A program made the translations under genes and the position numbers. Below, in pieces: positions 4,623-56,093 of a stretch of DNA of 64,000 nucleotides (the first letter of the stretch is position 1; the number at the start of each line of letters is the position of its first letter). This DNA comes from Rickettsiales bacterium. GTDB lineage: Bacteria; Pseudomonadota; Alphaproteobacteria; Rickettsiales; BLZN01. A model generated the notes under the pieces. The model worked only from the letters and a program-made list of their open reading frames with translations. It did no database searches and had not been told where the DNA came from. The DNA lies in contig BLZN01000104.1 of assembly GCA_014132315.1 (NCBI GenBank), positions 35,623 to 99,622 of the forward strand, in the 5' to 3' direction.

Positions 4623-6106
4623 AACATGACAAAATTAGGGACCTGGGCATTGCCCTAGCGCAGCTAAATCTAGTGTCACCAAACTATAATAAAATCAATT
4701 ATGAATATCAATATGCAGTAAAAAGGAAAATAGATCTCTTGATTTTGCCTGACTCGACTTTCTCCAACAAACAAGACATAGAAGCTTTTGCTGCAAAGAC
4801 CGCAAGCCAAAGAACTGCAACCATAGCAGGGGGCCGTGGAAAAATCTTGGTAATATATCAGGGCACAACACAAGAAAAAGAGTTTGCTCAGCAGCATCGA
4901 TATATATCAGCTGAGATTAATAATTTAAGATTGCTAATTTTAGCAGACATACTGCAAACAGAAATCTGCGGCGCAGAGAGAAAATATGATTTTGTAATCT
5001 CACTACAAAATATACCTCACATAAAAGCAAGTAGCGCGGTTAAGCTAAAAGCAGCGCAGGAGATATCAAGGAAGCTAAAAACCCCCCTGATACATCTCAA
5101 CAAATTGGACATTCAGGAAGAGCTGATCTTTGGCGGTCATTCCTTCATAATTTCAGGAGCAGGCAAACTGGTTGCAGACATATCAGAGTGGCAGGAAAAA
5201 ACCATTAATACCAAATGGCAATATCAGGAAAACAAATATGAGCTTATCAGTGAAGTCAGCCTCTCCAAGCCCTATTCCAAAGAAGAATCTGTCTATCAAG
5301 CACTGATGATGGGGCTCAGAAGCTATGCCAAAAAGCATGGCTTTAAGTCTGCAGTGTTGGGCCTCTCAGGGGGCATAGATTCTGCCTTGACCTTAGCTGT
5401 TGCCGCTGATGCAATCGGCAAGGACAGGGTTTATGCGGTTCTTATGCCCTCGCTTTATACCAAGGAATCTAGCATCCAGGATGCAAAAAAATATGCCGAG
5501 AATCTGGAGATAGAGCACAGCATCGTTCCAATAGATAAAATTTTTAGTAGCACCAAGGAGAGCCTCGGATCTATATTCGCCGACATGCCAGAGGACATAA
5601 CAGAGGAGAATATGCAGGCCCGCATCAGGGGGATGATCTTGATGTCAATCAGCAATAAATTTGGCCATCTTATGCTCTGCACGGGCAATAAATCAGAGAT
5701 CGCAGTGGGCTACTGCACCTTATATGGCGACACTTGCGGAGGATATGCCCCGATTGCCGACCTATATAAAACAGAAGTATATAAGCTCAGCAATTGGCGT
5801 AACCAAAATGTACCTTTCAGCGGGCTCATCAACCAAACCGACATTATTCCTGAGAGCATTATCAGCAGAGCACCCTCAGCAGAACTCAAGCCAAACCAGC
5901 AAGACCAAGACGATCTTCCGCCTTACTCAGAACTGGATAAAATTCTACAAAGCTTGATAGAGGAGCAAAAAGCACCGGACAAACTACCAAACTATGATAA
6001 GATAACAGTAGCAAAAATTGTTAGTTTATGGGAAAAAGCAGCATTTAAACGCCATCAGCTCCCTCCTACTATCAAAATACCCAAAATATTGATGAGCAAA
6101 AAATAA
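4619..6106 (+). CDS. nadE: NAD+ synthase with a degenerate N-terminal CN-hydrolase (glutaminase-like) domain
   Basis: PP-loop ATP pyrophosphatase motif LGLSGGIDSALT and the NadE C-terminal region (GNKSEIAVGYCTLYGD, APSAELKPNQ.DQD.LPPY). The N-terminal ~210 aa align to the nitrilase-like domain, but the catalytic positions look substituted. Confidence 0.85.
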   Translation: MKHDKIRDLGIALAQLNLVSPNYNKINYEYQYAVKRKIDLLILPDSTFSNKQDIEAFAAKTASQRTATIAGGRGKILVIYQGTTQEKEFAQQHRYISAEINNLRLLILADILQTEICGAERKYDFVISLQNIPHIKASSAVKLKAAQEISRKLKTPLIHLNKLDIQEELIFGGHSFIISGAGKLVADISEWQEKTINTKWQYQENKYELISEVSLSKPYSKEESVYQALMMGLRSYAKKHGFKSAVLGLSGGIDSALTLAVAADAIGKDRVYAVLMPSLYTKESSIQDAKKYAENLEIEHSIVPIDKIFSSTKESLGSIFADMPEDITEENMQARIRGMILMSISNKFGHLMLCTGNKSEIAVGYCTLYGDTCGGYAPIADLYKTEVYKLSNWRNQNVPFSGLINQTDIIPESIISRAPSAELKPNQQDQDDLPPYSELDKILQSLIEEQKAPDKLPNYDKITVAKIVSLWEKAAFKRHQLPPTIKIPKILMSKK

Positions 6107-6192
6107 GCCAGCTGAATCAAAGTGGCTAAGTGTTGTATAAGGCAAAAAAATACTGTATTATTTGGCACAGGTTTAACTAAAGGCTAGACAAA

Positions 6193-7095
6193 ATGAAGAT
6201 AGCTAAAATTTTTATTCTCTTGTTAGCAATCGTGCCCCTTGAATGCTACTGCATGCCTAGCTTCATGAAGCCGAAAGAACAAGTAGTAATCAGAGATGCT
6301 TTCTGTAGAGAATTATCAGAGAATTACTCAAGATATGCGAAAGAAAGAGCAGCAGAATATGACTGGAAAAGTGCTAAGCATTTCGCTAGAAAGAGTTTAT
6401 ATGCAGCTTTGGGCAGACCAGTGGCATTAGAAACTTTCCATAGTTGTACGGCTTGTACATCCTATTCTTGTTATCCAATTTCTTTTCTTACAGCAGAAAT
6501 AAGAGAAATCAAAAAGATTGTAGAAGATTGTCTGCTTACTAAGCACGCCAAAGAAGTTTACCCCAAGTTAGCCGCTGACGTACAGCTTTTCTATGATTGC
6601 TGGATATCGCAGAGGGCAAAACGCTATGCTGCCGAGGCTGTATCAAAATGTCGCGCGGAATTTTATAAGTCAGCAGCCAAGCTGGCACAGAAGACAGGGC
6701 AGGAGCTGCCCTCTATAACTGCAAGAACTCCGGGTGTTTTCTTTGCCGCAGTGGCCGTTCCTTTCGAAAACGCAAGTAGCACCTTAAGCGAAGCCGCTAA
6801 AAAAGTCATTCATAATCTGCTGGATAAAATAGATGCAATCGCAGAAAACAAGCACTACAAGATAGCACTAATAGGGCATGCCGACGAAGAAATGGAGACA
6901 GATCGCGACCAAGAAATCTCAGAAGAAAGGGTGCATGAGGTAAAGAAATATCTAATAAGCAAAGGCGTCAGCGCAGAGAGAATAATCGCTACCGAGATGG
7001 GCAACAGCATACCACTTACATGGCATAAAGAAGGGCGACATAAAAACCGTCGTTTGGAGATATTTGTCGTCACGGGACAAGAAGATCAAAGTTAG
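6193..7095 (+). CDS. OmpA-family (peptidoglycan-associated) protein
   Basis: Signal peptide, then a C-terminal OmpA-like domain (ALIGHADEE...EISEERVHEVKKYLISKGVSAERI...NRRLEIFV). Confidence 0.75.
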   Translation: MKIAKIFILLLAIVPLECYCMPSFMKPKEQVVIRDAFCRELSENYSRYAKERAAEYDWKSAKHFARKSLYAALGRPVALETFHSCTACTSYSCYPISFLTAEIREIKKIVEDCLLTKHAKEVYPKLAADVQLFYDCWISQRAKRYAAEAVSKCRAEFYKSAAKLAQKTGQELPSITARTPGVFFAAVAVPFENASSTLSEAAKKVIHNLLDKIDAIAENKHYKIALIGHADEEMETDRDQEISEERVHEVKKYLISKGVSAERIIATEMGNSIPLTWHKEGRHKNRRLEIFVVTGQEDQS

Positions 7096-14849: not shown

Positions 14850-16730
14850 GGCATAATCCATGAATGCAAATAGCGTCTGGTTTCGGTGAATCTTGCAATT
14901 TTTTGGCCAAATTTGTCCAAGCTGTGTACGTAATCATAACAGTAGCTGAAATAGATTTGCGGCCAAGAATGGCGCGTAGGGCACAACAAAGAGTGGCAAA
15001 TGCATCAATAAAGCCTAGTATATGCCCTGGGATTTCTAGGGCCCTTTTTTATTGCTCAATTATTGTTCACAAATCCATAAAAGATGTCGCCCCTCGTGAG
15101 CAAAGATAATGCAGAGGGAATTATACTTCTTCTGATATTGAGCATAACCCTATTATGCACAATGCTCTTGAACATGCACAAAAGCGACCTTCATCCACAA
15201 AAAAGCAAGATAAATCAGCCCATATATCTCAACATGTATGTAGATACATGGGGCCATAAACAGTCCCGAGATGCAGGTACATATCCGCAAACCATCCGTA
15301 ATAATTGAGTCTATGAAAATGCAAATTTGCAGAATGGACACACAAACTCACCATTATTTATAATGTATTATTAGAAACCCGGAGCCTTTGCGAAAGACTA
15401 GGAGAAATGGCAATGCGCAAACGGGAGAGGAAAAATACTCCGGACTATTTTACCAAAGAGGACTGATATTTATGGCGATGACAGCAGAAAAAAATCAATA
15501 AAGACAGGGCATTAGAAGCCTCAAAGGTTGATCTAAAAAATTAATTTTGTGCCCATACTGCCCAAGAGCTATGCCCTAGAAATATAACAATTAAGTTAAG
15601 ATAGCGCTCGACGCAACCAAAATTTAAAGATAGAAAACATGAAGAGCCATAAAGAGGAAATATAAGGGGCATATAATCTTAAATATAATAGCAAGGTCGA
15701 GCCCCGCATAAAGAACATCTTTTATATGGTTTGCCGGCCGGAGCAGCGCCATATCTATGCATATAGCGCAGCAAACGCGCGCATAAAAGCAATGAGGCTC
15801 GACAATCTGTGTTTTTATTTTGATTCTAGCCTACAAACCTTCAAAGCAGAAGGCATCAAGGGCAACATATAAGCAAGCGGGACAAAGAAGCATCGACACA
15901 ATAATTAAAATTAGTAAGGTCCATACAACGCTGCAAAAAATATGTAAACTAAGAACACAGAGGCCATGGGGGCACATCCAGTGCATATAATGAATATTTT
16001 GTTGGACTCCTGGCAAAAATTACGAATGGCAAAAATATGATGCGATCTTGATGAAAATAATACAAAGCTCTGCATGCACAACCCAGGATAATGCCTATAT
16101 ACATAAAAAAGCAACAAAGGGAATTCAAGAGGGGATGGACAGAAGGAAGCGGAGGATAAGCCACATGAAAGCCGCATGTGCAGAGCCCTGATGGGCAGAT
16201 TATCCAAGACGCACCCCTAAATATGAAATGGTCCACCTATCAAGAACATTATCAGAGGAGATATTATGAGATTACGCCGGAGAGGTCGGATTATTAATCT
16301 GGAGTTGGGGCGACAGATGCGGCGCAGGCTGATTCAAGAGTTGAGAAGTAATCTTATTTACTAAAATATTAATTAGTAATATATCTATTAGGCTTAAAAT
16401 TATTATATATTTTGTATATTAATTATGTATATAATATATGCTATGCAATAGAAACAAAAGGCTATAAGGTAAATTAATGATAATGCCGCCACAAAATTTA
16501 GGAATGAAAAATGAGCGGAAGAATCCTGCATTCAAGCTGAGCGAAATTAAAGCAAAACAGAGGCAAGATATCCGCACAAAGCGAGAGCCAAAGGGATCAC
16601 AAAGAGCCAATAATGAGAGGCACGCATGAATCATGCTCATATTCAGGGCCAGGAAGCCTTAAAAGCAAAGAGTCGACATCTGTGCTTTGCGCTAAAATAA
16701 CAGATTAAGTATACACTAGTAGAATTACAG

Positions 16731-16760
16731 TATAGCTATGACTTAAAAGTCATAGCTATA
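16731..16760. repeat. perfect 13-bp inverted repeat with a 4-nt loop, immediately 3' of the capsid gene
   Basis: tatagctatgact-taaa-agtcatagctata. It lies 14 nt downstream of the capsid stop on the minus strand. There is no U-tract, so it is not a canonical intrinsic terminator. Confidence 0.6.
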
Positions 16761-16773
16761 CAAAACCGAAATT

Positions 16774-17997
16774 TTAGGCAGAAAGCTGCAATAACCTTAG
16801 CGCCTCACCGCACACTACCGCACCACCAACTCTTTTTGTAATGTAAAAGGTAACCATAGGCTTAGATGTATAAGGATCCCGCAAGACGCTCACACCAGAT
16901 CTGTCAACAATCATATATCCCCGTTTAAAATCACCCAAAACAACCGAGAGCGAATTAGTTGCAGGAGCCATCATATCAGCAGCCTGATAAACCGGGAGAC
17001 CAAGTATAGTGTCAGTAGTGCCCATAGTCATGTTAGGCTGCCATATATAAGTGTTACTGGTAGGGTGCTTAAGTGTTCTTATAAGTTGCGTAGTGGCACG
17101 ATTCATTAAAAATGCAGCACCGGATATATAATCTTCTTTGAGATCGTAGTACATCTTGATGAGATTATCAACGGTAATGCTGCCATTGGTGCCAGATTTT
17201 ATCCTTTTGATATAATCAGAAGATCTGGAATTAGTACGAGTTAAGATGCCTTCGGGTTTCAGCGCTCCATCTCCTTTGATGAATCCCTCGCTTTCCTTTG
17301 CTGCAAATGCCTGCCCAACCTTCTTAATCAGCCATTCCTCAACATCAACAGATGCATCATCTAGCAGCTGCTGTGTTATCTTAGGATTAGCATAAAGTTC
17401 ATTTACTGTGATAGTCTTACGATTAATCCTAGGAGTGTTAGTATTTCCGCTGATTACGACATCAGTGGCGCCAGACCAGTCAACCGTAGGACTAGTATAA
17501 TCTTCGAGCACCTCCAAAGATGCGGTAGAAATATTCTGCACTGTTGCCAGCTGCCTTATGGGAGAACCTTCCAAAGCCGCCTTGCTCATCTCTTCTGCAG
17601 CAGCAGGATCAACGAAATAACCCCCATCCGCATCCCTCTCATTAGAGAGAGTCTTGGTTTGCAATCTGCGCAACGGCCCTTCTGTACCACTACGCAAATA
17701 TGAGCGAAAAGCACTCTTATATTCTGCCATATCTTCATCAAGCACATGATAATCACTGTCAGACGGGCCAAATCCTGGTCTTTGCATGGAAAGCTCAATC
17801 TTTCTAACCCTTTCCTTGCATTTATCAATGTTATCATTTATCCTTTTTAATTGGGTAATGGTTAGTGTGTCTGCAGAGCCTCTTTCTCCAATTTCACGCA
17901 ATCTCCTTTCGTTCACTTGCTTAAATTGCTCCCATGCAGAGCATAATTCATTCACTTTGCGTGTAGCATCAGGTATAGACATAATATATCCCTCCAT
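16774..17997 (-). CDS. HK97-family phage major capsid protein
   Basis: 407 aa. Coiled-coil N-terminal delta-domain-like region followed by an HK97-fold-like body (...GGYFVDP..., ...FLMNRATTQLIRTLK..., ...LGLPVY...). Sits directly after the prohead protease. Confidence 0.85.
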   Translation of the reverse strand: MEGYIMSIPDATRKVNELCSAWEQFKQVNERRLREIGERGSADTLTITQLKRINDNIDKCKERVRKIELSMQRPGFGPSDSDYHVLDEDMAEYKSAFRSYLRSGTEGPLRRLQTKTLSNERDADGGYFVDPAAAEEMSKAALEGSPIRQLATVQNISTASLEVLEDYTSPTVDWSGATDVVISGNTNTPRINRKTITVNELYANPKITQQLLDDASVDVEEWLIKKVGQAFAAKESEGFIKGDGALKPEGILTRTNSRSSDYIKRIKSGTNGSITVDNLIKMYYDLKEDYISGAAFLMNRATTQLIRTLKHPTSNTYIWQPNMTMGTTDTILGLPVYQAADMMAPATNSLSVVLGDFKRGYMIVDRSGVSVLRDPYTSKPMVTFYITKRVGGAVVCGEALRLLQLSA

Positions 17998-18035
17998 ATT
18001 ATAATTTATATTAAGCTTTTAGAAATGTACTAAAA

Positions 18036-18590
18036 TTAGCTAGCCAGTATCCTTAGAGCTCTATCTATAGCTCCAAATAAATCTGGATCATTGTTTATCC
18101 CTCCAGATTCATGCTTGACCTGAGTCACGCGCGCTTTTTCATTCGCAGGATTAACAGCCAAACTTATTTCAAAGACATAGCCTGTGGCAACATGGGTAAT
18201 GCCAGTTTCCGGGTCTATATAGTACCTAAGGGGAGCCCAGCCAATAGACACGCCGTTAAATACACCCTCTTTCATCATCTCATAAACCTCACGTGCACGC
18301 TGCACATCAAGGCAAAGCTGCGCCTCAAAATACAATCCTTTTTTATCTTCTTTGGCATCTAGTATTTTGCCTATCGGCTCCCGGGCTATGTGACTCCAAA
18401 GTAGAGTTATGCGGTCAGGGTCCAGATACTCAAAAGCACCTGGATACGTGATATCATTATGCAAATCCAAGTAATTAAAAACACTTGCATACCCAACAAT
18501 CTTGCCAGTTTCCTCAACTGACTTTATCCCCAAGATAGGCTCGGTTTTAAAAGTTTGGAAATTATGAGAAGCTCGTGCAACTGCCGCCAT
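18036..18590 (-). CDS. HK97-family prohead serine protease (S78)
   Basis: 184 aa. GYASVFN..D.HNDITYPGAF, LLWSH....PIG (His) and GVSIGW (Ser) match the S78 signature. Confidence 0.85.
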   Translation of the reverse strand: MAAVARASHNFQTFKTEPILGIKSVEETGKIVGYASVFNYLDLHNDITYPGAFEYLDPDRITLLWSHIAREPIGKILDAKEDKKGLYFEAQLCLDVQRAREVYEMMKEGVFNGVSIGWAPLRYYIDPETGITHVATGYVFEISLAVNPANEKARVTQVKHESGGINNDPDLFGAIDRALRILAS

Positions 18591-18677
18591 ATTACCCCCT
18601 AAAAGTATTTAATTGGTTAAATATTAAATATCTTTTGTTGCTATAAAATTTAAAATTTTAAGATTTATTGCAGAATG

Positions 18678-19205
18678 CTATTCGTTGTAGTATAAGGCGG
18701 TAACTGGATCTGCATACATTAGAGGAACAGCACTTATACTAACCCCCATGATCCACAGTGTACTATAAACTTTTATTCCTTCCTCTACACTGCGCTCTTG
18801 GTCTATTATGCTCTTAGCCTCCATATAGTAAACTGAAGAGTTCATAGACACTCCAAACCTCAGCATCGCATAAATCTCTCTAGCCTTCTGCACCTTCAAG
18901 ATAAGCTTAGCTTTATAATACAGACCTTTTTCGGGATCTTCATAGAGACTCAGTACTTTGCCTATCGGTTCTGCCTGATTAATATTCCACACAACCGTGT
19001 GGTCAACGAAATCTATATTCTTAAAAGCACCAGGCAATGCTCTACCACCGGCACCGGGAGTGCCAAAGGGCAGAGAATTAAGGGGACCATCATAACCGGC
19101 TGCATAGCCATAAATTATGCCATCACCTTCCACTCCACTGGACTCAAACCCCGCGACGTTATCATTTCTCACTATTTCAAGAGAATTAGAACTGATTCTT
19201 CTCAT
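18678..19205 (-). CDS. prohead-protease paralog lacking the catalytic His (probable pseudo-protease)
   Basis: 175 aa, alignable to the neighbouring protease (GYAAGY...LPGAF...VVWNINQAEPIGKVL..EDPEKGLYYKAKL..VQKAREIY). The SH of LLWSH is replaced by NI, and the N-terminal region carries a Gly-rich insertion. Confidence 0.7.
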   Translation of the reverse strand: MRRISSNSLEIVRNDNVAGFESSGVEGDGIIYGYAAGYDGPLNSLPFGTPGAGGRALPGAFKNIDFVDHTVVWNINQAEPIGKVLSLYEDPEKGLYYKAKLILKVQKAREIYAMLRFGVSMNSSVYYMEAKSIIDQERSVEEGIKVYSTLWIMGVSISAVPLMYADPVTALYYNE

Positions 19206-19254
19206 AATTACTCCTCATAAAACAAGTCAAAAATAGTTCGCAAATCTAGCATAC

Positions 19255-20481
19255 TCACTCAAGCTCATCTCCCCCAGCCACAGGACCAAGACCCACTGCT
19301 TCTCTTTTTTCATTTGTGGTCATAAAATCTGCAACTCTCACTCTATCCCATACCTTATCCTGCTTTGCACTAATTGCGCCTATTGAATCTATGTCATAGG
19401 CCAGCCTTAAATTATCGGCAAAAACACAGGAGATGGAATTATTCATACCTTCAATTATCTTATCCAAAAGAGGCAAAACAGTTTGCTCCCATAGGGCTAG
19501 GCGAGCTTCAATTAGATTACTGTAGGTATTGTCTCCCGGTATGCCCAGAAGCTGTGGAGGCACCCCAAAAGCAAGCGCAATATCGCGTGCAGCGCTATAT
19601 TTGACATTTACGTAATCCATGTCCTTAGGGTTTATGCTCATCTCTTTCCAGTCCAGTCCACCCTCAAGCAACATCGGTCTGCCTGCATTTCCGCTGCCCA
19701 TATATAATTCTTCTATTTGCTTCTTGATGCGCTGATATTGATCTTCGGCCAAAATTCCGCCACTCCCATCCGTAGCAGGCTTGACCACCAGAGCTCCGCT
19801 AGGTCTAGCGCCATTTTGCAGCAAGGCCTGGTTCCAGGCGGCAGCCTGATTATGCTGATCTATGCTATAGGCCGCAGCTTCAACTGGAGAAAGACCGTAG
19901 CGGTCATCAGTGGGATGAAAAGTTTTTAAGTGCAGGATATCGGATTTTCCACTAAATTTATTAACCCGAAAATTCTTGACCTTATCACCTACCTTATATT
20001 CATAACTCATCAGGCCTTTTTCAGTAGCTACAATCTTGATGCGATCAGGTCTTAGCAGATATAATTCTTCGGGATATTGTCTGGAGCTAGAATAGGCCTT
20101 AACTACATATGCATTGCCGCTGATCAACAAATATTCAATAATATTTTCAATAAAATCCACCCCAGACATAAAAGGATTGGGCTTCTGCAGCAAATTTAGC
20201 AAAGGGTGAGTGTTTAGCTCCGCCTGATTCTCAGCATTATATAGCTTAATGGAGACAGAGGACGCTGCAGCCGCTATCATGTTAATACATCTGTGGACTA
20301 TAACATTTTTAATGTAGCCCTCTCTGGCAAACTGCACATAACCCCTACCGGTCCATGCCGGATCACCCATGGAATAAACAAAAGATCTCTGCGCAAAAAG
20401 ATCGTGTCTCAAGTTAGAGCCATTAATACTTTTTGTATGTTTATTGCGTAGTCTTTTTGTTAACTTCTTTACAATACTCAT
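19255..20481 (-). CDS. HK97-family phage portal protein
   Basis: 408 aa. Size, position upstream of protease and capsid, and portal-like conserved stretches (...GNAY..., ...YGLSPVEAA..., ...LAFGVPPQLLG...). Confidence 0.85.
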   Translation of the reverse strand: MSIVKKLTKRLRNKHTKSINGSNLRHDLFAQRSFVYSMGDPAWTGRGYVQFAREGYIKNVIVHRCINMIAAAASSVSIKLYNAENQAELNTHPLLNLLQKPNPFMSGVDFIENIIEYLLISGNAYVVKAYSSSRQYPEELYLLRPDRIKIVATEKGLMSYEYKVGDKVKNFRVNKFSGKSDILHLKTFHPTDDRYGLSPVEAAAYSIDQHNQAAAWNQALLQNGARPSGALVVKPATDGSGGILAEDQYQRIKKQIEELYMGSGNAGRPMLLEGGLDWKEMSINPKDMDYVNVKYSAARDIALAFGVPPQLLGIPGDNTYSNLIEARLALWEQTVLPLLDKIIEGMNNSISCVFADNLRLAYDIDSIGAISAKQDKVWDRVRVADFMTTNEKREAVGLGPVAGGDELE

Positions 20482-20739: not shown

Positions 20740-20961
20740 CTACACGTCATAATTGCTATAATGATCATATTCATCGTAAGTAGTATACACCACTGGCTGA
20801 TATTCCACATAATAGGGCGTATTATAAGGATATCCGTATTCTACAAATACAACTTCCTGTTGATAATGTTGGGAAACATAGTAATAACCCAGTCCAAAGG
20901 CGGCTCCAACCGCGAGGCCAAATAATATTTCTAAAGCAAGCATACCAACAACAAAACACAT
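20740..20961 (-). CDS. 73-aa membrane-anchored Tyr-rich acidic mini-protein
   Basis: N-terminal TM-like segment (FVVGMLALEILFGLAVGAAFGLG), then a tail with 15 Tyr. SD AAGGA and a TATAAT-containing promoter-like motif lie upstream. Confidence 0.55.
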   Translation of the reverse strand: MCFVVGMLALEILFGLAVGAAFGLGYYYVSQHYQQEVVFVEYGYPYNTPYYVEYQPVVYTTYDEYDHYSNYDV

Positions 20962-20979
20962 AAACTTTCCTTATAAATA

Positions 20980-20992
20980 AATATTATATCAA
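20980..20992 (-). promoter_or_regulatory. TTGATATAATATT promoter-like motif for the 73-aa ORF
   Basis: The minus strand reads GTATAATATCTTGATATAATATTTATTTATAAGGAAAGTTTATG. About 48 nt of this leader are duplicated at 21119-21163. Confidence 0.45.
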
Positions 20993-21034
20993 GATATTAT
21001 ACATAATAGATCGTATCATAAACATATACGTATT

Positions 21035-21118
21035 CTACTTGAGGGGGGGCGTGTATGTAAGTTCGTGAACTACTAGGCCGGCAGCGACCGTATATAAAAA
21101 AGGTATCAAAAAAGGCAT
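21035..21118 (-). pseudogene. truncated or frameshifted tandem paralog of the 73-aa Tyr-rich gene (27 codons as read)
   Basis: Same leader, a perfect AGGAGG SD, and a hydrophobic N-terminus (MPFLIPFLYTVAAGLVV). The frame terminates just after a C7 tract. One extra C would give ...PPPQVEYVYVYDTIYYV* (40 aa, Tyr-rich like its neighbour). Confidence 0.45.
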
Positions 21119-21137
21119 AAATTCCTCCTATAAATAA

Positions 21138-21150
21138 AATATTATATTAA
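21138..21150 (-). promoter_or_regulatory. TTAATATAATATT promoter-like motif for the 27-codon ORF
   Basis: The minus strand reads GTATAATATCTTAATATAATATTTTATTTATAGGAGGAATTTATG. Confidence 0.45.
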
Positions 21151-21220
21151 GATATTATACAATAATGTCCAAAAACTAAAGTTTGTTAAATTGTTATTTA
21201 TGACAAAAAGTACATATTAA

Positions 21221-21439
21221 CTATAATACTAAAGGCATAGAATCAGTTATCCAGACCCAACCAGCAAAAGGATCCCAAGCCAAAGTTTGACAATAATAGT
21301 TGGTTACGCAATAATAGTTGGTTTCACATAGATATGTTCCAAAAAACCAATAACAGTCTTGAACTGGGTAACAATCTTCATATGCAACTACTCTGTCGCA
21401 AGTAGGGACATAGTAATCAACTACTATCATATCAGTCAT
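21221..21439 (-). CDS. 72-aa Cys/Tyr/Trp-rich orphan peptide
   Basis: Perfect SD (AGGAGG, 5-nt spacer). Six Cys with spacing C-x8-C-x5-C-x8-C-x5-C-x5-C. Internal TNYYC duplication encoded by an 18-nt tandem repeat (21291-21326). Confidence 0.5.
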   Translation of the reverse strand: MTDMIVVDYYVPTCDRVVAYEDCYPVQDCYWFFGTYLCETNYYCVTNYYCQTLAWDPFAGWVWITDSMPLVL

Positions 21440-21593
21440 ATCATCCTCCTAAAAAGTTAAATCATTATTAATTATAAACACAAAAATATATCTAATTTCA
21501 AGTACTTTAAATAAAAAAATTGCTTTTTTTAAAAGATTAATGCAATGGGCTTATCCATTCCGGATATCCATTCTAATTATAGCAATATATTCA

Positions 21594-21863
21594 TTATCCC
21601 AAAAAAGAGTCATAATCAAGGACATCACGGTCATATACATTAAACAGGCCTTGAGTAGCTATATTATCTCCTGCCAATGTACCAGTCAAATCAACACTAC
21701 TAGGTAGCCACCAAGGTTTATAAGAATAGCCCTCACTAACTACAGCACTATCATACCAATATTCTTGTCGGACATGTATTATGCCAGGCTCATAAGTATA
21801 TATAAATTTTGCATAATCAGCAACAGATTCAGATCCACAACCAGTAATAGCTTTAGATGTCAT
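21594..21863 (-). CDS. 89-aa aromatic-rich acidic orphan protein
   Basis: Isolated ORF in an AT-rich spacer, co-oriented with the other small ORFs. Composition is rich in Y, W and D. SD-like AGGT upstream. Confidence 0.4.
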   Translation of the reverse strand: MTSKAITGCGSESVADYAKFIYTYEPGIIHVRQEYWYDSAVVSEGYSYKPWWLPSSVDLTGTLAGDNIATQGLFNVYDRDVLDYDSFLG

Positions 21864-45020: not shown

Positions 45021-45623
45021 ATGAGTCTAGTACCGATAGTAATTGAGCAAACTAACAAAGGAGAGCGCTCCTACGACATATATTCTCGCCTCCTAAAGGA
45101 CAGAATAGTTCTGCTTGTTGGGCCAATTGAAGATCATATGGCCAGCTTAATTGTGGCACAGCTACTATACCTGGAATCAGAAGATTGCGAAAAAGACATA
45201 CATATGTATATAAATTCTCCTGGTGGGGTTATAACATCTGGTCTCTCGATATATGATACTATGCAGTACATAAAACCCAAAGTATCTACTCTCTGCATAG
45301 GCCAAGCAGCATCTATGGGGTCGCTGCTGCTTGCTGGGGGGGCACCTGGCAAAAGAGGGGCCCTGCCTAACGCACGCATAATGATCCACCAACCTCACGG
45401 AGGGGCACAAGGGCAGGCGAGTGACATTGAGATACAGGCTCAGGAAATTATATATCAGAAGCGCAAATTAAGCGAAATATATGCAAAACACACAGGTAAA
45501 TCAGTAAAATCTATCGAAAAGGATATAGATCGTGATAATTTTATGAGACCGGCAGATGCAAAAGATTACGGCTTAATTGATAAAGTAATAGAAGTAAGAC
45601 ACACAGATAGCAAAGCAAAATAA
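45021..45623 (+). CDS. clpP: ATP-dependent Clp protease proteolytic subunit
   Basis: [15 protein letters not shown], active-site GQAASMGS and MIHQP motifs. Confidence 0.96.
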
Positions 45624-49792: not shown

Positions 49793-51097
49793 ATGCAAAA
49801 AGAAAAGTGTGCTTATGTTAACGCAAGGTTAATAGACCCAGAATCAAATTTTGATATGCAGGGCAGTCTACTAACCGAGGGTGAGCATATAGTAGATTTT
49901 GGCACATCGCTATTTAGATCAGGGGTGCCAGATAGCATAAGCAAGGTTATTGACTGTAGGGGTATGGCGCTGATTCCTGGTATCGTGGATATTCACACGC
50001 ACCTTCGCGAGCCTGGTCAAGAGCATAAAGAAACAATCAAAACAGGCACAAAGGCGGCGGCGGCAGGCGGTGTTACTACAATTGCCTGCCAGCCAAACAC
50101 ATATCCTCCGGTTGATAATCTAGGCACTCTCAGCATTCTGCAAGAAAAAGCCAGGCTGCATTCTTGCGTTAATCTTCGCACCTATGCCGCAATAACCAAG
50201 GGGCTGAAAGGCGAGGAACTAACGGACATGCATAGCCTGAAAGAGGCAGGAGTGATCGGATTTAGCGATGATGGAATGCCGGTCAGCAATCCGGCGGTGA
50301 TGCGTTTTGCTCTCAGCTACGGCTCAATGCTGGATGTGCCTATCGCACAGCACGCAGAAGATCATGCGCTCACAGCTGGAGGCTGCATAAATGAGGGGCA
50401 TGTGTCAGAGAAGCTGGGGGTTGTTGGAATACCGAATTCTTCGGAAGCCGCAATAGTCGCACGAGATATAATGCTCTGCAAGGAAACCGACAGCTATTAT
50501 CACGCTCTACATCTTTCTACCAAAGAAGCATTAGCAGCGGTGGCGCAGGCAAAGGAACAGGGCCTGAATGTTACCTGCGAGGTAACCCCGCATCATTTCA
50601 TCTTAAACGAAGAAGAGGTGCTTAAAAGCGGCACTCTTGCGAAGATGAACCCCCCCCTGCGTAGCGAAGAAGACAGAAAAGCCCTGATAGAGGGGCTAAG
50701 GACAGGGATAATCGACTGCATTGCTAGCGACCACGCGCCGCATGAACCATCTGCTAAAAATTTGCCCTTGTCGCAGGCGGCATTCGGCATAGTAGGCTTA
50801 GAAACGCTGCTGCCTCTTTCGCTCAAGTTATACCACGAAGGTATTATGCCCCTGCGCGATGTGCTTACTAAGCTGACTTATAAGCCGGCAGACATAATAA
50901 AAGAACGAGCTGGGCGCATTAAGCGCAACTACAGAGCAGATCTAGCCTTGGTTGATTTAGACCGTGAATGGACAATTAATACTGCCAAGTTTGCCAGTAA
51001 ATCGAAAAATTCTCCTTTTGATGGATATAAAGTTAGAGGCAAAGTGCTCAGAACGGTAGTGCGTGGCAAAACTGTATATGAAGATTGCGACGCTTAG
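49793..51097 (+). CDS. pyrC: dihydroorotase
   Basis: Amidohydrolase metal-binding motifs DIHTHLREPG and ASDHAPH; 434 aa. Confidence 0.88.
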   Translation: MQKEKCAYVNARLIDPESNFDMQGSLLTEGEHIVDFGTSLFRSGVPDSISKVIDCRGMALIPGIVDIHTHLREPGQEHKETIKTGTKAAAAGGVTTIACQPNTYPPVDNLGTLSILQEKARLHSCVNLRTYAAITKGLKGEELTDMHSLKEAGVIGFSDDGMPVSNPAVMRFALSYGSMLDVPIAQHAEDHALTAGGCINEGHVSEKLGVVGIPNSSEAAIVARDIMLCKETDSYYHALHLSTKEALAAVAQAKEQGLNVTCEVTPHHFILNEEEVLKSGTLAKMNPPLRSEEDRKALIEGLRTGIIDCIASDHAPHEPSAKNLPLSQAAFGIVGLETLLPLSLKLYHEGIMPLRDVLTKLTYKPADIIKERAGRIKRNYRADLALVDLDREWTINTAKFASKSKNSPFDGYKVRGKVLRTVVRGKTVYEDCDA

Positions 51098-55433: not shown

Positions 55434-56093
55434 TCAAGCAGCGCATCTAAGCTGCGAAATAGCCTTGCTATATCCATCTTTTCCTGCGCAGAAAACAGCA
55501 GAGCCCGCCACAAGCACATTAGCTCCGGCACTGATTATTTGCGCCGCATTGCTCAAATTAACCCCCCCATCCACAGATAAATCAATTTCTTTATCCAAAG
55601 AATCTATCATCGAGCGAATCTTTTCAATCTTGCACAGCTGCGAGAGCAAAAACTTCTGTCCGCCAAAACCAGGATTGACTGACATAACCAAAACCAGATC
55701 AATCTCTGGCAATATATAATCCAAGACACTAGCAGGAGTTGTGGGAACCAAAGCTACTCCCGCTTTTTTATTCAGGCTTTTGATCTTCTGCACCATTCTC
55801 TCCAAATGCACCACAGATTCATAGTGCACAGTTATGATATCAGCCCCTGCATCAACAAAAGATTCAACCAGGAGCTCATTGACGCTAGTCATCAGATGGA
55901 CATCAAAAATCACATCAGTATAACGCCTAATACTTTTGATCACTACCGGCCCAATAGTTAGATTGGGAACAAAATGTCCATCCATCACATCTATGTGGAT
56001 ATAATCAGCATCAGCTGCTGCCAAATCCCTTATTTCCTGACCCAGAATTGCAAAATCCGCTGATAATATAGAAGGTGCAACCTTCATCCGCAT
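55434..56093 (-). CDS. rpe: ribulose-phosphate 3-epimerase
   Basis: [21 protein letters not shown] and [10 protein letters not shown] motifs. Confidence 0.94.

Follow-up and report, generated by a model that had tools for sequence, protein, structure and literature searches.

Pseudogenised tandem duplicates and split genes are an ordinary part of genome decay in the Rickettsiales. The reduced genomes of endosymbionts also contain frameshifted genes at homopolymers, and some of these are rescued by transcriptional slippage. For example, Tamas and colleagues reportedly described in 2008 frameshifted genes with poly(A) tracts in Buchnera and Blochmannia that are rescued in this way. Homopolymers also underlie the poly-G/C contingency loci of Campylobacter, Neisseria and Haemophilus. 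A G/C run of at least 7 is the lowest cut-off for phase-variable tracts even in Campylobacter (PhasomeIt, PMC6321876). In Helicobacter canadensis, switching of the C-terminal sequence by homopolymeric tracts near the 3' end of the ORF is described (PMC2823697).

The locus described here is a Tyr-rich mini-gene on the minus strand of a 64-kb stretch of Rickettsiales DNA (the window, meaning the whole stretch that was analysed). The preliminary description had proposed that the gene may be a contingency locus and not simply dead. The locus resembles the poly-G/C contingency loci in that a G/C run of 7 lies inside a reading frame and one unit more or less decides whether the product is truncated or longer; it also belongs to a small, probably membrane-associated and fast-evolving gene family. 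However, the tract is here only a candidate of minimal length, and it is absent in the nearest relative, whose gene has another disabling mutation. No excess of tracts is seen, the other tracts lie in housekeeping genes, and the organism is a symbiont of the Rickettsiales. As in the Helicobacter canadensis case, the tract is close to the 3' end, at codons 24-26 of 40 and thus within the last third of the restored ORF, and the three frames would give three alternative C-termini and not a clean null. The alternative tails here are 2, 9 and 14 residues long and belong to only part of a duplicated gene, and their switching is putative. The rescued frameshifts of Buchnera and Blochmannia share with this locus an intracellular bacterium, a small genome, and a homopolymer frameshift in an otherwise translatable gene. 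The known cases are long A/T runs in conserved and needed genes; whereas here a C7 run lies in a redundant partial duplicate, at a site that is not conserved. With the pseudogenised duplicates of the Rickettsiales, the locus shares a paralogue beside its parent, truncation at the junction, lineage-specific frameshifts and near-neutral substitutions. There is no difference of substance from these; the parent is a member of an unstudied orphan family, and the translation signals are intact in the window strain. The mini-gene fits this ordinary class of pseudogenised tandem duplicates in reduced intracellular genomes.

The mini-gene, its signals and the C7 run

The source genome is that of strain SESOKO1, a coral-associated Rickettsiales bacterium from the host coral Acropora tenuis (PMC7686419). 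The genome is small (1.08 Mb draft). The assembly is a single-amplified genome, obtained from one cell by two MDA rounds, MiSeq 2x75 reads and SPAdes, with a mean coverage of 876x (PMC7686419). The accession of the reads is DRR235466. Since one MDA-amplified cell was assembled, the letters of the window represent the state of one cell and not a population mix. The other long homopolymers of the window (A/T of at least 8, G/C of at least 6) were all found in frame within long intact ORFs (12 of 12), and a systematic homopolymer error in the assembly is therefore unlikely.

The mini-ORF as it stands (21035..21118, minus strand) extends from the ATG at 21118-21116 to the TAG at 21037-21035, and encodes 27 aa (MPFLIPFLYTVAAGLVVHELTYTPPLK). 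This ORF forms the 5' part of the duplicate described below, and its paralogy is seen in the DNA alignment A2. The perfect Shine-Dalgarno (SD) sequence and duplicated leader of the preliminary description were both recovered. The AGGAGG (21129-21124) lies 5 nt before the ATG; its counterpart in the related contig L006 is GAAGGA. The 25-nt leader TGTATAATATCTTRATATAATATTT has exactly two copies in the 64-kb window (21161-21137 and 21003-20979), whereas none is expected by chance. Leader copy 1 (TGTATAATATCTTAATATAATATTT; 21137..21161, minus strand) is promoter-like, with two TATAAT boxes. Leader copy 2 (TGTATAATATCTTGATATAATATTT; 20979..21003, minus strand) lies upstream of the 73-aa neighbouring gene, and contains the extended -10-like motif TGATATAAT (20982-20990). 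The corresponding sequence in leader copy 1 is TAATATAAT (21140-21148), without TG. Because this TG of the extended -10-like motif is missing, the putative promoter of the mini-gene may be weaker than that of the 73-aa gene.

The N-terminal 17 residues of the mini-ORF are hydrophobic (best 15-residue Kyte-Doolittle mean 2.25), and codons 7-8 contain a T6 run (21096..21101, minus strand). The C7 run (21043..21049, minus strand; G7 on the plus strand) is directly followed by the stop, as had been stated. The Tyr-rich tail (QVEYVYVYDTIYYV and a stop; 20997..21041, minus strand) is out of frame, in the -1 frame relative to the ATG, and its last 7 nt overlap leader copy 2. The addition of one C to C7 gives an ORF ending in TPPPQVEYVYVYDTIYYV, with the TAA at 20999-20997 within leader copy 2. 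The statement that eight C would continue the frame into a tail like that of the 73-aa neighbour holds, and this tail is homologous at the DNA level in A2. It is also correct that the restored frame (C8) would end within the leader of the 73-aa gene, 7 nt into it; this leader would be the promoter of that gene. Different tract lengths correspond to different products. C8 leads to 40 aa and C5 to 39 aa, both with the paralogue-homologous tail; whereas C6 or C9 would give a third C-terminus, TPPSSRIRICL followed by a stop.

The expected number of G/C runs was simulated with first- and third-order Markov models. In the 1.47-kb small-gene block with 31.5% GC, 0.009 runs of at least 7 are expected; in the whole 64-kb window, 4 were observed and 1.6-2.0 are expected (P 0.07-0.2). 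The C7 run is conspicuous locally but not across the window, where G/C runs of at least 7 are not enriched; the earlier remark that it stands out is thus valid for the block only. The three other runs of at least 7 are all in frame in housekeeping genes: G7 in ClpP (45336-45342), C8 in a dihydroorotase-like gene (50650-50657), and C7 in Rpe (55562-55568). A C6 run also lies in frame in NadE (5082-5087). Essential genes of this genome (NadE, ClpP, the dihydroorotase-like gene and Rpe) tolerate G/C runs of 6-8.

Descent from a Tyr-rich gene family and loss of frame

In the searched collections only one close relative was found, the 145-kb ENA metagenome contig L006, which shares synteny with the window and about 97% identity in the housekeeping genes. 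The outgroup clade (L008-L011) has gltX, a Cys-rich gene (Cys70), a single Tyr-rich gene (Tyr72) and the portal gene, without the mini-gene and without the 89-aa gene of the window. More distant Rickettsiaceae with a related portal (L001 and L003) have no such small genes upstream. The portal protein search revealed only relatives of 37-50% in genome contigs and one relative of 44% in metagenome contigs. Homology searches with the 73-aa, 72-aa and repaired 40-aa proteins gave nothing closer than L006 and the L008-L011 clade. Exact look-ups of six window-encoded proteins (two by database id) found none on record, and three DNA patterns compared with viral contigs revealed no further strain.

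The mini-gene was aligned at the DNA level (alignment A2) with the family copies, which are the 73-aa and 85-aa genes and the 72-aa Tyr72 gene of the outgroup. The leader, the start codon, the hydrophobic segment, the Pro-Gln site and the VEY(V)YVYDT.YY tail are homologous to these copies. Homology stops at TATTAT, where leader copy 2 begins, and the duplication junction lies between TATTAT and GTATAATATC. After TATTAT, the mini-gene continues with GTATAATATC (leader copy 2), whereas the full-length gene reads GTGGAATATC; the sequence upstream of leader copy 1 is ATTATTGTATAATATC. Given the position of this junction, the upstream copy continues into the downstream leader and ends within it. 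The mini-gene thus duplicates part of the Tyr-rich gene in tandem, with the leader and about 40 codons in a head-to-tail unit of about 158 nt. The paralogy includes the upstream non-coding sequence, the junction can be defined, and the outgroup has a single copy. With a single copy in the outgroup and a pair in each of the two close strains, the duplication would have taken place in the common ancestor of the window strain and L006.

The homologous C site differs among the copies. In the outgroup it reads GTG CCC CCT CAG (VPPQ), and this in-frame C5 run in the Pro-Pro codons is the ancestral state. The mini-gene of L006 reads ACA CAC CCT CAA (T H P Q) and then GTA, with C3 and open into the tail; whereas the window reads ACA TAC ACG CCC CCC C/TC AAG. 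The spacer from GGCCTAGTAGTT to TCAA in A2 measures 17 nt in two of the four in-frame copies and 20 nt in the other two; only the window has 25 nt, and its allele thus carries a net +8 nt relative to L006. A C run sits at this site because the gene family has an older Pro-Pro C5 run; the run is, by this alignment, descended from the Pro-Pro codons of the family and not a newly acquired repeat. Some outgroup contigs also end at C runs. L010 (end 3219) and L011 (end 1036), from different assemblies, stop at an identical position, right after the Tyr72 C5 run (GTGCCCCCT), and L009 ends (3362) inside another C run, 140 nt downstream of the Tyr72 C5 site. Either a technical loss of coverage at C runs or a strain polymorphism that begins at this point could explain these ends.

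The frame of the mini-gene is broken in both strains, and differently. In L006 a T7 run replaces the T6 run of the window (21101-21096), which puts the ATG out of frame and gives the product MPFLIPFFIYGRCRPSS; only the first 7 residues are common to the two products. This T7 allele stands on a contig (ERZ26168041) with 4.3x coverage. The SD of L006 (GAAGGA) is also weaker than the AGGAGG of the window. In the 9.4-kb alignment of the window with L006, the indels in real genes are all multiples of three (6, 15, 3 and 3 nt in the Tyr-rich 73-aa gene; 3 nt in the Cys-rich 72-aa gene), and the housekeeping and head genes have no indels. The mini-gene is the only ORF with other indels (1 and 8 nt). 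The disabling mutations thus differ between the two lineages: net +8 nt leaving C7 in the window and +1 in the T run in L006. Since the searched collections contain one close relative, independent loss rests on two lineages.

The repaired mini-gene alleles differ by 8 substitutions in 6 codons, all non-synonymous (8 of 8), and the repaired frames show no sign of purifying selection, although the numbers are small. The mini-gene is about 93% identical in the window and L006, similar to the flanking intergenic DNA. Such all-non-synonymous change alone can't separate a dead gene from a fast-evolving one, because intact neighbours also have dN/dS of at least 1. In A2, deletions of 27 and 15 nt, both in frame, set the mini-copy apart from its parent gene. 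Moreover, the 45-nt tail is 100% identical in the window and L006, although neutral divergence is about 8-12%. On account of these deletions and the identical tail, the mini-copy may have remained a working coding gene for some time after the duplication.

The mini-gene is probably a decaying relic of this partial tandem duplication, with its frame lost independently in the two lineages. In the ancestor, a single small gene would have stood between a small Cys-rich gene and the phage-type portal gene; it would have encoded a membrane anchor followed by a tail that was acidic and Tyr-rich, and its Pro-Pro codons would have been CCC CCT. In the common ancestor with L006, about 158 nt (promoter-like leader, SD and the first ~40 codons) would then have been duplicated head to tail as one unit, with its junction at a short similarity (TATTAT GTnnAATATC) between the coding sequence and the leader. 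The truncated copy would afterwards have been lost separately in the two lineages. In the window lineage, a net +8 nt around the Pro codons would have produced C7 and the stop after 27 codons; in the L006 lineage, +1 in the T6 run at codon 8 and a weakened SD would have disabled the copy. The residual effect today would be at most a 27-aa hydrophobic peptide and read-through transcription into the 73-aa gene.

Weighing the explanations of the broken frame

Several observations run against simple decay. Independent loss rests on two lineages, as the searched collections contain one close relative, the window copy retains its perfect SD, ATG and leader, and the two in-frame deletions and the identical 45-nt tail suggest a coding phase after the duplication. 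The intact neighbours evolve with dN/dS of at least 1 too, and both disruptions lie in homopolymers, as a slippage switch would also look. A switch of this kind would be slipped-strand phase variation, in which the C run gains or loses units at high frequency during replication. It would alternate among the 27-aa form (C7), the Tyr-tailed 39/40-aa forms (C5/C8) and a third C-terminus (C6/C9), as on/off or C-terminal switching. The tract reaches the G/C cut-off of at least 7 used by PhasomeIt, although at the bottom of the range, where tracts may mutate at <1e-5 according to its authors (PMC6321876). The hypermutable-length tract in the ORF is thus present only at its minimum (C7), while a change of repeat number does restore a meaningful ORF (C8/C5, 40/39 aa) with a paralogue-like tail. 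The tract is locally very unexpected (0.009 in the block), the translation signals and leader are intact in the window, and the family is a fast-evolving, probably membrane-exposed orphan, a type of gene in which phase variation is frequent. The homologous site also has runs of different length in three lineages (C5, C3 and C7). However, the window and L006 differ by the 8-nt indel and substitutions and not by a pure change in repeat number, and L006 is without the tract and disabled elsewhere. The other G/C runs of at least 7 are in frame in ClpP, Rpe and the dihydroorotase-like gene, in a number not above expectation, and the 64-kb window shows no excess of tracts in accessory or surface genes. 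A literature search combining phase variation, homopolymeric tract and Rickettsiales found no report. Variation of repeat number with the rest of the gene intact was not seen in L006, the only close relative, and the mini-gene is for this reason not filed as a contingency locus. Phase variation is accordingly a quite unlikely explanation. A working slipped-strand switch that toggles the C-terminus of a small membrane-anchored Tyr-rich peptide, with the T-run shift of L006 as an equivalent switch, is doubtful as well. Equally doubtful is its wider form, a switching peptide that belongs to a rapidly diversifying block of orphan genes beside GTA-like head genes in an uncultured coral-associated Rickettsiales symbiont. 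If the C run did switch, it would count among the early cases of SSR phase variation in the Rickettsiales, and would offer a way to study how symbiont surfaces vary in corals.

The proposal of a contingency locus in place of a dead gene is not supported, in view of the relative without the tract (C3, with an 8-nt difference), its T7 frameshift and weakened SD, the only non-3n indels in 9.4 kb, the lack of purifying selection, a C7 at the lowest cut-off, and other tracts in frame in housekeeping genes. The preliminary description had itself named further disabling mutations as evidence against a switch, and essentially such mutations are found in L006 (the T7 frameshift and the weakened SD). 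What remains of that description is a frameshift-truncated Tyr-rich paralogue, with the shift at or next to the C run and a tail that C8 or C5 restores. A non-switching use of the locus might also be considered, with a fixed C7 and a 27-aa product, or transcription and translation of the mini-ORF itself, that matters now. This is unlikely, both as a small hydrophobic peptide and as an upstream promoter with a uORF feeding read-through into the 73-aa gene. The AGGAGG-N5-ATG is perfect, the leader is retained, the N-terminal 17 residues are hydrophobic, and high conservation extends from the tail to the leader that follows. No terminator-like site separates the mini-ORF from the 73-aa gene, so that read-through is possible. 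However, the hydrophobic segment is rather short to span a membrane, L006 does not conserve the product and has a weakened SD, and RNA structure gives no hint of attenuation (z = +0.94). An attenuator with a leader peptide (a Tyr-rich uORF sensing Tyr-tRNA) was rejected, as there is neither a terminator-like site nor structure, and the Tyr codons are inherited from the paralogue. Rescue at the level of expression is very unlikely. RNA polymerase slippage on C7 or a -1 ribosomal frameshift on CCC CCC C would then yield some 40-aa protein; the tail does lie in the -1 frame, so that one extra C in the mRNA or a -1 slip gives it, it is perfectly conserved in L006, and rescue is known at homopolymers in insect endosymbionts. 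By contrast, the C run is out of the X XXY YYZ phase (zero-frame codons ACG CCC CCC CTC), no downstream structure is found (z = +0.94), and the site is absent in L006, where CAC CCT needs no shift and the defect is elsewhere. None of motif phase, stimulatory element or site conservation in relatives is thus found as for a programmed frameshift or slippage site. Insertions by transcriptional slippage are also described as favouring A and T runs and not G/C runs (PMC5574713). Least probable of all is an artefact, in which the true tract would be C8 or C5 and C7 would have arisen by early-cycle phi29 slippage in MDA or by an Illumina or assembly error. The DNA of one cell went through two MDA rounds, 2x75 MiSeq sequencing and SPAdes assembly, so that a slip early in the amplification could prevail in all reads. 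Against this, the 12 other long homopolymers of the window are all in frame in intact genes, and the mean coverage is 876x. Moreover, L006, an independent assembly, also carries a broken copy, so that an intact mini-gene is not the expected state.

The orphan small-gene block and its meaning

On the minus strand the gene order is hisS, gltX, the 89-aa ORF, the 72-aa Cys/Tyr-rich ORF, the mini-ORF and the 73-aa ORF. These are followed by the head genes, which encode in order an HK97-type portal, a 175-aa protease-like protein (matching PHROG 80), an S78 prohead protease and the major capsid protein. The stretch 14850-20481 of the window comprises this phage-type head module (portal, 175-aa protease-like protein, S78 protease and capsid), without an adjacent terminase, and about 1.9 kb without a long ORF (14850-16770) that follow it; the layout is the same in L006 and L008. 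The module resembles either a GTA-like cluster or what is left of a decayed prophage.

The 73-aa full-length paralogue (20740..20961, minus strand) has a hydrophobic N-terminal segment and an acidic Tyr-rich tail, with 21% Tyr. It is identical to RLOatenuis_3860 of 'Rickettsiales bacterium', which is annotated as a hypothetical protein. The upstream neighbour, the 72-aa Cys/Tyr-rich orphan (21221..21439, minus strand), is identical to RLOatenuis_3870 of 'Rickettsiales bacterium', and is conserved in L006 and the outgroup clade. In Pfam, NCBIfam and PHROGs, no significant match was found for any small protein of the block; a holin PHROG match (E = 0.067) was rejected, since the hydrophobic segment would account for it as noise. 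The Tyr-rich protein profile, searched against 1.8 billion representatives, found only the query and two low-complexity, multi-stretch matches. The repaired 40-aa product has no similar protein among 5.8 billion clusters.

The small-gene block (20740-21863, minus strand; 5104-6258 in L006) is a hot spot of divergence, with a nucleotide identity of 71-94% compared with about 97% in the flanks. Between the window and L006, dN/dS is 1.3 for the 89-aa gene, 0.67 for the Cys-rich 72-aa gene and 1.8 for the Tyr-rich 73-aa gene; it is 0.09-0.17 for hisS, gltX, the portal, the proteases and the capsid. Since their indels are all in frame despite the fast divergence, the 89-aa, Cys-rich 72-aa and Tyr-rich 73-aa genes look like real, clade-restricted and rapidly diversifying mini-proteins. 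The Tyr-rich orthologue of L006 has an in-frame expansion of 15 nt (6150-6200; window ~20797), by which AATCCAGTGGCG is repeated in tandem (NPVANPVA). The C-terminus of this orthologue is also different and longer (85 compared with 73 aa), and the tail is thus variable in length.

As a decaying duplicate the mini-gene matters little, but it is a neat and datable case, in a small symbiont genome, of microhomology-mediated tandem duplication and separate later losses by frameshift. It also advises caution, because an isolated G/C run in AT-rich DNA can be what remains of Pro-Pro codons. The genes of the small block are each preceded by an SD and an AT-rich promoter-like sequence, and encode Tyr- and Cys-rich orphans with dN/dS around or above 1. 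These orphan mini-proteins may be host-facing factors of the coral symbiont. The whole block of orphan, fast-diverging mini-protein genes is the part of most further interest.
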